A DNA stretch of 64,000 bases from Alphaproteobacteria bacterium (GTDB lineage Bacteria > Pseudomonadota > Alphaproteobacteria > UBA828), in contig CBDEFM010000002.1 in assembly GCA_965237415.1 (NCBI GenBank), positions 1,536,001 to 1,600,000 on the forward strand, in the 5' to 3' direction. Under the pieces are notes generated by a model, which had not been told where the DNA came from, did not search any database, and worked only from the letters and a program-made list of their open reading frames with translations. The translations under genes were made by a program, and so were the position numbers. Of this stretch, positions 24,747 through 26,023 are shown piece after piece. Numbering within the stretch: the first letter of the stretch is position 1; the number at the start of each line of letters is the position of its first letter.

Positions 24747-24797
24747 TCCGACACCCTGAAGGGTGAGGTGGCCTCGCCCCCTTACCTTGTATCTCGT

Positions 24798-24960
24798 CTG
24801 ATCGCCGTCGTTGCTATTCTGACGGCGGTGGAAGCGGGCGGGAGACCGATCCACCTCTGGTCTCGAAGACCGCGGGTGAGCGTGGCTCCCCGTCCGCTGT
24901 TCCTGAGAACCCGAACAGTCGCTTGGTCCGCTGTGCGAGACCGCATTCGCAAGGAAGGGT
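24798..24960 (+). ncRNA. Predicted IS110 bridge RNA
   Basis: 5' hairpin plus two internal-loop stems; ACAGTCGCT (24915-24923) equals the element's donor junction, and GGGTGAG (24874-24880) is complementary to core plus right target flank CTCACCC. Confidence 0.75.
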
Positions 24961-24964
24961 CGTC

Positions 24965-25897
24965 ATGGAACAGAGGTTTATCGGCATCGACGTGGCGAAG
25001 GATCGGCTCGACGTGCATGTGCGCCCGTCGGGGGAGGCCTTTGCCGTCGCGCGCGACGGCAAAGGCCTCGATGAGTTGGTGTCTCGGTTGCGCCAGCCGG
25101 GCGTGGCGCTGATCGTGCTCGAAGCGACGGGCGGCTTCGAGACGACGATGGCGGGGACGCTCTGTGCGGCCGGCCTGCCGCTGGCGGTGGTGAACCCGCG
25201 CCAGATCCGCGACTTCGCCCGCGCCACCGGCCGACTTGCCAAGACCGACGCCCTCGATGCGGCGGTCATTGCCCACTTCGCGGACGCGGTCAGGCCCGAA
25301 CCCCGGCCCGTGCCGGACGCCCAGGCCCGCACCCTCGGCGAGCTGATCACCCGCCGGCGTCAGATCGTCGGGATGATGGCGGTCGAACGCAGCCGTCGAA
25401 AGCGGCTGATCTCTCGTCGCATGATCAAGAGCGTCGACCGGCTGCTCAAGGCACTCCAGCGCGAGCTCTCCGACCTCGAAGCCGATCTCGACGACACCAT
25501 CCGAGGAACGCCCGCCTGGCGTGAAACCGAGGACCTGCTCAAGAGCGTCCCCGGCGTCGGCGACGTCACCGCCCGCACCCTCATCGCCGATCTGCCCGAG
25601 CTCGGCACACTGGATCGCAAGAAGATCGCGGCCCTGGTCGGTGTGGCTCCCTTCAACCGGAACAGCGGCACGCTCAGGGGCAAGCGCACCATCTGAGGCG
25701 GCCGCGCCAAGGTGCGCGCCACGCTCTACATGGCCGCCCTCGTCGCGAGCCGTCACAACCCGGTGCTCAGGCGCTTCTACCAACGCCTGCTGGAGGCCGG
25801 GAAGCCCAAGAAGGTCGCGCTCACTGCCGTCATGCGAAAGCTGCTGACCATCCTCAACGCCATCATCAGAGACCAAACCCCATGGCAACACGCTTGA
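24965..25897 (+). pseudogene. IS110 recombinase with an internal TGA (25694-25696, probably TGG to TGA)
   Basis: GIDVAK, LEATGG, KTDALDA, SVPGVG, NSG; frame continues [12 protein letters not shown]...AVMRKLL after the stop. Confidence 0.88.
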
Positions 25898-26023
25898 CAG
25901 ACAAGACAGTCGCTCACCCATCTCCATTTCCCCCTCCGTCGGAGTTTCCGTTCCACGCCGCATTCGTTCCATCGACCTCATGGGCTCCGCACGACCGGCG
26001 GACAATTCACCTCGGCGTCCTTT

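Follow-up and report, generated by a model that had tools for sequence, protein, structure and literature searches.

A probable IS110-group insertion sequence with a left-end-encoded bridge RNA and an interrupted transposase gene in an alphaproteobacterial genome

Bridge RNAs have been predicted in 85.7% of the IS110-group elements in ISfinder (Durrant et al. 2024, PMC11208160), and a close described counterpart of the locus considered here is IS621 of E. coli (Durrant et al. 2024, PMC11208160; Hiraizumi et al. 2024, PMC11208158). In these RNAs the left guides repeat the top-strand sequence through the core dinucleotide, and the right guides form the complement of that strand, beginning with the core (Durrant et al., PMC11208160). 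Two further elements are relevant to the comparison: ISPpu10 of Pseudomonas putida, which inserts into an intergenic repeat with a GC-rich stem-loop (Na et al., bioRxiv 10.64898/2026.03.19.712850), and ISPpu9, whose sub-element circles use short repeated end sequences (Pares-Guillen et al. 2025, PMC12288879). Here we describe an element located at 24788-25914 of the window, meaning the whole stretch of 64,000 nucleotides analysed (positions 1,536,001 to 1,600,000 of contig CBDEFM010000002.1, assembly GCA_965237415.1, from an alphaproteobacterium of lineage UBA828). It very probably belongs to the IS110 group of IS110-family insertion sequences, with a left end (LE) that encodes a bridge RNA reading both the element's own ends and its target.

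With IS621 the window element shares a transposase that combines a DEDD RuvC-like domain with a Tnp domain bearing Ser-Gly, a CT core, an LE longer than the right end (RE), with an LE of 177 nt here and an RNA of ~177 nt in IS621, and a promoter rebuilt across the RE-LE joint, which in the window is predicted. The RNA layout is also the same, with a 5′ hairpin, target- and donor-binding internal loops and guides of the same senses; the right donor guide likewise comprises 9 RNA nt for 7 DNA nt, and conserved bases occupy the handshake positions. The two differ in how the target is divided between guides, the right target guide being 7 nt long in the clade of the window element against 4 in IS621, and the left target guide contributing ~4 non-core bases against 7. 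They also differ in the sequences recognized, with donor ACAGTCG-CT-TGTAT and target CCAC-CT-CACCC in the window and ATCAGGC-CT-AC in IS621. Further departures from IS621 are a left donor guide whose last base is other than T in 49 of 71 relatives and, in the window copy, a nonsense codon. An earlier sequence-only reading of this DNA, made by a model from the letters, had called the element a natural orthologue of IS621 with distinct target and donor specificity, which these differences in guides and ends bear out.

Counting one CT core, the element measures 1127 bp, with an RE of 15 nt. Both junctions can be read directly: on the left, TTAC (24782-85) and CT (24786-87) are followed by TGTATC (24788-93), and on the right, ACAGTCG (25906-12) and CT (25913-14) are followed by CACCC (25915-19). 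The CT dinucleotide is the sole sequence common to both junctions, the adjoining bases differ, and the same holds in relatives; neither terminal inverted repeats nor a target duplication beyond the core is present, as is typical of the IS110 group. The LE is far longer than the RE (177 vs 15 nt), which is the IS110-group pattern of Durrant et al., the reverse pattern with a longer RE being that of the IS1111 group (Durrant et al. 2024, PMC11208160). The sequence ACAGTCGCT is present at 24915-23 and at 25906-14 and has no third occurrence in the window, where its chance expectation is 0.42 and 6 of 100 shuffles reach two occurrences anywhere. The remaining guide motifs lie at 24848-56 (GATCCACCT), 24874-80 (GGGTGAG) and 24949-53 (GCAAG).

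The product of the open reading frame (ORF) at 24965-25897 contains the Pfam domains DEDD_Tnp_IS110 (PF01548, E = 9e-22) and Transposase_20 (PF02371, E = 4.5e-20), and scores 217.8 bits against NCBIfam NF033542, "IS110 family RNA-guided transposase", whose cut-off is 140. Residues 2-308 align to the solved structures of the IS621 transposase (8wt6_A, E = 1.4e-38) and of ISCro4, placing D9, E53, D95, D98 and S234-G235 opposite D11, E60, D102, D105 and S241-G242 of IS621, as numbered by Hiraizumi et al. (2024, PMC11208158). A single in-frame TGA at 25694-96, codon 244 of 310, interrupts the ORF, which has no other stop and no frameshift. It lies 10 residues past the catalytic serine and truncates the Tnp domain by its last 67 residues; because of this position, the window copy should be immobile as sequenced unless it is complemented. 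The interruption concerns the activity of this copy and not its membership in the IS110 group: in every feature testable from sequence the element conforms to that group except for the intact frame, which it lacks, and the -10 box, which is weak.

To define the element boundaries, we searched for relatives and confirmed 229 stretches, of which the best 80, with 55-70% protein identity, were kept; they come from Reyranella, Pseudolabrys, Xanthobacteraceae, Hyphomicrobiales and other mostly alphaproteobacterial genomes. Five loci with short upstream sequence and one duplicate were dropped, leaving 74 loci in addition to the window. An LE of ~172 nt, beginning with CT followed by TGTA(T/A), stands directly upstream of the transposase gene in 74/74 loci, and every readable RE ends in TTGACN, 9 nt and AC(A/G)G(T/C)CG-CT. 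Thus the relatives share the boundaries proposed earlier, CT before TGTA on the left and ACAGTCG-CT on the right, and their flanks covary with the guide loops. The conditions that the earlier reading had set for its own rejection, differing boundaries or flanks that fail to covary, did not arise. Closer taxonomic kin were of no use for boundaries, since among 61 genomes of the same genus or family the seven with a relative at E <= 1e-30 (G000 included) all showed <=41% identity. Boundaries, protein family and covariation therefore agree with the earlier description of an IS621-like IS110 element with an LE-encoded bridge RNA between two CT cores.

The right target guide follows the DNA beside each insertion closely. 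The right junction was readable in 69 of 75 rows, and in 63 of these loci the guide matches the core plus right flank at 7/7 positions, with 6/7 in four, 5/7 in one and 2/7 in one. The loci hold 18 distinct guides, and of the 20 distinct guide/flank pairs 14 match perfectly. Outside the core the mean is 4.5/5 matches, against 1.70/5 when guides are compared with the flanks of other families. The window guide GGGUGAG matches its own flank at 7/7, so the earlier identification of 24874-80 as the exact complement of the core plus right target, CTCACCC, is confirmed and extends across relatives by covariation. For the left target guide, the 59 distinct pairs average 6.37/9 against a null of 4.57 ± 1.10, and the fractions matching at positions -7 through -1 are.34,.26,.53,.86,.83,.93 and.95, against null values of.39,.28,.38,.42,.47,.46 and.84, from which we infer that ~4 non-core bases of this guide are used in the clade. 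Its register shifts by one base between subgroups, and loci L084, L061 and L050 share the register of the window. The second core base of the left target guide is also non-T in about a fifth of pairs; right guides nearly always end in AG. The effective target of the window element is then CCAC-CT-CACCC, and its own site, TTAC-CT-CACCC, matches at 9/11 positions, with agreement at 2/4 effective non-core left-guide bases plus the core. The earlier placement of the left target guide at 24848-56 holds; its full length does not, because only the four core-proximal bases and the core are used and the element's own site fits two of those four.

The donor loop reads the ends of the element in a comparable manner. 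The left donor guide is identical to the RE plus core at 9/9 positions in 21/71 loci, as it is in the window, and at 8/9 in 50/71, of which 49 differ only at the last guide base; this base may be T, C, G or A, and the donor core is CT in all loci. Where the RE reads ACGGTCG (20 loci) or ACAGCCG (9 loci), the left donor guide carries the same change, so that the guide proposed at 24915-23 is confirmed both by its identity to the RE plus core and by its following of two RE changes. The right donor guide has an unvarying CAAG (24950-53), paired with CT-TG, and two bulged bases upstream of it. Beyond the bulge, LE base 5 covaries with the guide in 75/75 loci, T being found with guide A in 26/26 and A with guide U in 49/49. 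This covariation defines the right donor guide as AUU-CG-CAAG at 24945-53, nine RNA bases for seven DNA bases, in which AU pairs with A4 and T5 of TGTAT and one U-T mismatch is left. The GCAAG with one wobble that had been read as this guide is therefore its 3′ part, the true guide being discontiguous. Immediately after the right target guide stands C in 68/71 loci, opposite the G at the last RE position, and CAAG is followed by G in 66/66 loci, opposite the C at left-target position -1 in 62/66. As judged from the aligned letters, these conserved bases are consistent with the handshake pairs of IS621, the pattern being conservation and not covariation.

The fold of the RNA was derived from an LE alignment of the window and 46 relatives, obtained from 57 distinct LEs after removal of 11 near-duplicates (L021, L023, L031, L032, L036, L069, L075, L090, L093, L094 and L095). 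The RNAalifold consensus, tested with two pairs inside the donor guides removed, has 97.4% of cells paired and double changes in 13 of 25 pairs; 0/500 shuffles reach any of the observed measures, and controls with slid partners give 31-54% paired. Compensatory changes occur in 10 pairs of the 13-pair stem that closes the target loop. The variable 5′ region forms one hairpin of at least 6 pairs in 47/47 aligned LEs, an observation that is descriptive and without a control. From its 5′ end the RNA thus comprises a hairpin, a target loop with the left guide on the 5′ side and the right guide on the 3′ side, and a donor loop arranged alike; an LE RNA of this kind, in which a stem closes and a hairpin caps each of two internal loops, is characteristic of the IS110 group. 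The earlier proposal that each guide lies within a stem, internal loop and hairpin is upheld by covariation for the target loop; the stems of the donor loop are conserved but near-invariant. Taken alone, the sequence 24788-24964 does not fold significantly (z = -1.87), and its minimum-energy fold mispairs the 5′ region with the target-loop stem. A search of 24600-26100 with Rfam 15 gave 10 weak matches, the best with E = 0.017, far below gathering scores. One metatranscriptome contig covers 24829-25011 with one difference, although a contig in an RNA library does not amount to transcription.

The hexamer TTGACA at 25894-99 contains the stop codon of the ORF and is followed by 15 nt to the end of the core; across the RE-LE joint, TATCTC (24790-95) comes 17 nt after it. 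TTGACN is found in the RE of 69/71 loci, always 15 nt before the core end, and the spacing is fixed in 71/71. The -10-like hexamers across the joint are TATCTC in the window and TAACTY or TATCAA otherwise. By sequence, the -35 box and its spacing fit a promoter formed at the circle junction, with a weak -10. The joint ACAGTCG-CT-TGTAT had been said to assemble TTGACA, 17 bp and TATCTC; the motifs, the spacing and a conserved -35 box support this, and the -10 box is the weak part.

The empty site was rebuilt by joining 24756-24787 to 25915-25930. Folded as DNA it reaches -11.1 kcal/mol, against -3.64 ± 1.66 for shuffled sequences (0/300 as low), and it contains a 9-bp stem situated 15 nt after the stop of a SoxR-type gene, so the earlier description of the empty site as a 9-bp stem just after soxR is correct. 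The accompanying view of this hairpin as the target of the guides needs correcting, since the soxR hairpin is not the usual target and the best matches lie in a repeat resembling repetitive extragenic palindromic (REP) sequences. In the element's own genome CCACCTCACCC occurs 23 times against 6.7 expected, and in 19/23 sites it is followed by CGGCCCTCTCC or a one-base variant, which opens a hairpin with a 12-bp stem; none of these REP-like sites is occupied. The repeat, with ~19-25 sites (e.g. C2:1991963), reads CCCCCACCTCACCC followed by [CT]GGCCCTCTCC and the hairpin. It is the genome's best match to the target guides, at 11/11 effective positions, and the copies seen are all unoccupied. In having its best-matching sites in a REP-like repeat, with the 12-bp-stem hairpin starting 8 nt downstream, the window element resembles ISPpu10 (Na et al.), and it departs from the ISPpu10 pattern in that the window copy sits in a different hairpin.

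Other observations connect the element with such repeats. One metatranscriptome contig runs through the RE to 25919 and continues into REP sequence, which indicates that a near-identical copy of the element elsewhere sits in REP, and the left flanks of two LE fragments (CCCCAC-CT) resemble REP. A hairpin begins at the core in 16 of the 63 distinct right flanks of the relatives, and long flanks are common to the members of multi-copy families, in keeping with the REP-type targets known for the IS110 family (Durrant et al.). The minus strand of 24761-71, the left arm of the soxR hairpin, holds an exact and intact 11-nt CCAC-CT-CACCC only 15 bp from the insertion point, and the actual insertion site is the poorer of the two. 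Sites with <=2 mismatches number 31 in the window against 22 expected. By our analysis a one-sided "half-match" insertion, as described for IS621 by Xie et al. (bioRxiv 10.64898/2026.08.31.748434), is possible at the window site, where the core and right arm likewise match at 7/7 and the left arm is poor; a solo LE described below also ends at a site matching the left donor arm plus core. The data of Xie et al. are in vitro and plasmid data for IS621, whereas here there is the genomic end state alone, and by effective guide length the 2 mismatches of the window site are within the normal range of Durrant et al. The 3′ region of soxR was matched in 0/20 other genomes of the genus, and at nine right-flank loci in other genomes no soxR was found within ~1.5 kb of the match, which fell at the start of the dehydrogenase gene or in a repeat copy; the soxR stretch 24267-24787 may be accessory DNA.

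Following the published mechanism of IS621, the element would excise as a circle, in which the joining of RE to LE would set the TTGACN -35 box 17 bp upstream of the -10-like hexamer, and the 177-nt LE would be transcribed from this joint promoter into the bridge RNA. The covariation shows CCAC-CU and GGGUGAG in the target loop to specify CCAC-CT-CACCC jointly, and ACAGUCG-CU in the donor loop to stand for the RE plus core, with AUU-CG-CAAG complementing the core and the first LE bases. A tetramer of the DEDD/Ser recombinase would presumably exchange strands at the CT core using these pairings. The window copy occupies a near-cognate site (9/11) in the hairpin after soxR, and ~20 better REP-like sites are empty.

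Elsewhere in its own genome the element is represented by fragments. The full transposase occurs once, the other tblastn match having only 27% identity, and there are six further partial LE copies, comprising parts of 24784-24923. The shared LE boundaries of the relatives identify these as remains of full elements. One of them, a solo LE of 137 bp at C2:76517-76656 (minus strand), has 97% identity to window 24788-24923 and runs from the first LE base to exactly 24923; a new right flank follows directly after ACAGTCG-CT. The target-binding loop is complete in this copy and the two donor half-sites are retained; its left flank CCTCCAC-CT agrees with the left target guide at 7/9 positions, and its right flank CT-CCCCC agrees with the right target guide at 6/7. 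Its sequence is as expected from a deletion running from the guide-coding ACAGTCGCT to the true RE. A second fragment breaks off at the core position within the stretch coding for the left target guide. The fragment at C1:57885-58022, one of two older ones from related elements, shows a microhomology deletion of 279 bp from 24871 to 25151, joining the LE to the transposase gene and retaining transposase sequence; this joint is also present in contigs of public runs and is the only joint seen there. The other older fragment, at C2:3980191-3980402 (minus strand, 73% identity), starts at the right target guide, spans the donor loop and reaches into the first 17 codons, and the remaining LE fragments are plain truncations. 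With six fragments and ~20 empty better targets, this IS110 family is decaying in its own genome.

The presence of IS110-family parts alone in a genome recalls the modular circles of ISPpu9 (Pares-Guillen et al. 2025, PMC12288879), with the difference that the ISPpu9 module is a downstream small RNA (sRNA) gene, and the piece found here is an LE with target loop and left donor guide, in one clean case. A 22-nt pattern diagnostic of the solo-LE junction had 0 matches in metagenome contigs. A looser 18-nt pattern had at least 119, of which four have LE context upstream and are all intact LEs; among the matches listed, a fifth, flagged by a downstream motif, seems fortuitous, and the others are 16-mers matching by chance. 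A covariance-model search of five genomes found almost only full elements outside the element's own genome, and in view of these searches the solo LE remains a single case. A speculative explanation, which we consider quite unlikely, is that the DNA of the left donor guide itself mimics a donor site, since 11 contiguous bases are common to 24915-24925 and the circle junction. The solo LE would then have arisen by the action of the element's own recombinase on the mimic and the true RE, or as a miniature element mobilised in trans, and the non-T last guide base in 49/71 loci would be a form of self-avoidance, comparable to the way CRISPR arrays escape self-targeting. In the literature on orphan, miniature and self-targeting bridge RNAs, as far as a thin search of partly available accounts reaches, no guide-coded self-deletion is described.

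Several observations weigh against the interpretation of the window element as a bridge-RNA element disabled by its nonsense codon. A few genomes account for many of the 69-75 loci through multiple copies, and only the distinct-pair counts are near independent. The window's own GATCCACCT matches its left flank CCCTTAC-CT at just 4/9 positions, no better than chance. The donor-loop stems CCC/GGG and GGNC/GNCC vary too little to gain support from covariation, and no bridge-RNA family of Rfam 15 matches within 24600-26100. The -10-like TATCTC is weak, agreeing at 3/6 positions, and a consensus promoter scan of the linear sequence 24500-26100 found nothing, as would be expected of a promoter present only on the circle. 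Contigs of four public runs contain neither the circle joint nor the empty-site joint. Finally, the near-identical metagenome contigs of these four runs that cover 25696 all read G, and hence TGG (9/9); no contig with A at this position is among the nine, although contigs drop rare variants. This last result bears on the claim that the element is disabled by one TGA, of which the TGA at codon 244 and the lack of any other lesion are confirmed, with near-identical contigs reading TGG. It also bears on the suggestion that TGG was the original codon: Trp is what the closest kin encode, but in 81 aligned pieces of more distant relatives the column holds G in 51, A in 23, S in four, C in two, R in one and W in none.

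On such grounds the element might be considered alive, the TGA being an assembly or sequencing error, or being bypassed by read-through or by a split protein that restarts at GTG 25712. A 61-codon ORF does start at 25712, the transposase frame is otherwise free of stops and frameshifts, and public run X1 contains the unique flanks 24600-24765 and 25913-26100 with 0 differences. Even so, we regard an active copy as unlikely. The contigs with TGG differ from the window at 9 or 10 further letters per piece, which identifies them as derived from close relatives and not from the window copy, contigs cannot show absence, and the six decayed fragments with ~20 empty best-match targets fit an inactive family.

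The nature of the LE itself admits two further explanations, to which we assign much lower probabilities. If the structured LE were only a 5′ untranslated region (UTR) controlling translation of the transposase, with the flank matches reflecting a target preference of the protein, it would be natural that the right donor guide and the 3′ strand of the donor-loop stem overlap the ribosome-binding region, as they do (AAGGAxGGG at 24951-59, ATG at 24965), and UTR structure and sRNAs are reported to regulate ISPpu9. Protein-only recognition, however, would not track the 18 different 7-nt loop sequences that match their own right flanks, which makes this explanation very improbable as a full account, even if both roles can coexist. 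Least credible of all, and close to negligible in our estimate, is that the LE is a separate REP-like repeat or one resembling a miniature inverted-repeat transposable element, into which a shorter insertion sequence (24924-25914) was inserted, the ACAGTCGCT pair then being a target duplication. The six partial LE copies stand without a transposase gene, and the one with 97% identity ends exactly at 24923, as this explanation would have it; yet the LE starting with CT and TGTA stands directly upstream of the transposase gene in all 74 loci of many genomes, the flanks covary with loops inside it, a 41-nt LE would leave no room for guides, and the transposase sequence retained in C1:57885-58022 shows that fragments derive from full elements. 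The boundaries 24924-25914 were rejected on the shared LE of the relatives and the flank covariation. We therefore retain the interpretation of 24788-25914 as one IS110-group element whose LE is the bridge RNA gene.

The coordinates of the features are summarized in Table 1. The neighbouring genes encode a SoxR-type MerR regulator (24267-24746, Pfam), whose translation contains the CX2CXCX5C motif that supports the SoxR assignment, an EamA-type transporter and a 3-hydroxyacyl-CoA dehydrogenase; the element has no resistance gene beside it. Separately, a repeat of ~340 bp is present at 26026-26370, 110 bp to the right of the element. It has nine matches in the own genome including itself, the other full-length copies having 70-75% identity, and copies of 88% identity are present in one genome of the same genus; it has no Rfam match and no inverted repeats.

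Table 1. Features of the IS110-group element and its insertion site, in window coordinates.
Feature	Position	Strand	Remarks
Left flank of insertion site	24761..24785	+	left hairpin arm 24761-24769, then loop; TTAC 24782-85 adjoins core
Left CT core	24786..24787	+	same CT precedes TGTA in at least 71 relatives
LE, predicted bridge RNA gene, 177 nt	24788..24964	+	TGTAT at start is right donor half-site; TATCTC 24790-95
5′ stem-loop of RNA	24797..24829	+	sequence variable among relatives
Target-binding-loop stem, 5′ strand	24830..24847	+	pairs with 24884-24903; compensatory changes in 10/13 main-helix pairs
Left target guide GAUCCAC-CU	24848..24856	+	effective part CCAC-CU 24851-56; register backed by L084, L061, L050
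Target-loop capping hairpin GGUCU-CGA-AGACC	24859..24871	+	
Right target guide GGGUGAG (24874-80) and C24881	24874..24881	+	complement of CT-CACCC; C24881 at IS621 handshake-guide position
Target-binding-loop stem, 3′ strand	24884..24903	+	
Donor-binding-loop stem, 5′ strand CCC	24910..24912	+	pairs with GGG 24957-59; both invariant, no covariation evidence
Left donor guide ACAGUCG-CU	24915..24923	+	identical to RE plus core
Donor-loop capping hairpin	24925..24942	+	
Right donor guide AUU-CG-CAAG (24945-53) and handshake-like G24954	24945..24954	+	CG bulged
IS110-family transposase gene, 310 codons, in-frame TGA 25694-25696	24965..25897	+	
TTGACA, putative -35 hexamer formed only on circle junction, contains stop codon	25894..25899	+	TTGACN in 69/71 loci
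RE, 15 nt	25898..25912	+	left donor half-site ACAGTCG 25906-12
Right CT core	25913..25914	+	
Right target CACCC, within right hairpin arm	25915..25919	+	

Bridge RNAs are already established, and NCBI names the family "RNA-guided", so the element adds no new principle, and its clade may already be included in the orthologue tables of Durrant et al. What the locus provides is a well-resolved natural clade from alphaproteobacterial metagenome-assembled genomes and isolates, in which target reading is split unlike in IS621, with a 7-nt right guide and ~4 usable left-guide bases, and in which 18 natural right guides with their own targets form a natural reprogramming series. Since extended right guides give fewer half-match off-targets (Xie et al., bioRxiv 10.64898/2026.08.31.748434), orthologues of this clade may interest bridge-recombinase engineers. 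For the annotation of this genome, the element explains the pseudogene after soxR, the six scattered fragments and the REP-like repeat as the best-matching target.

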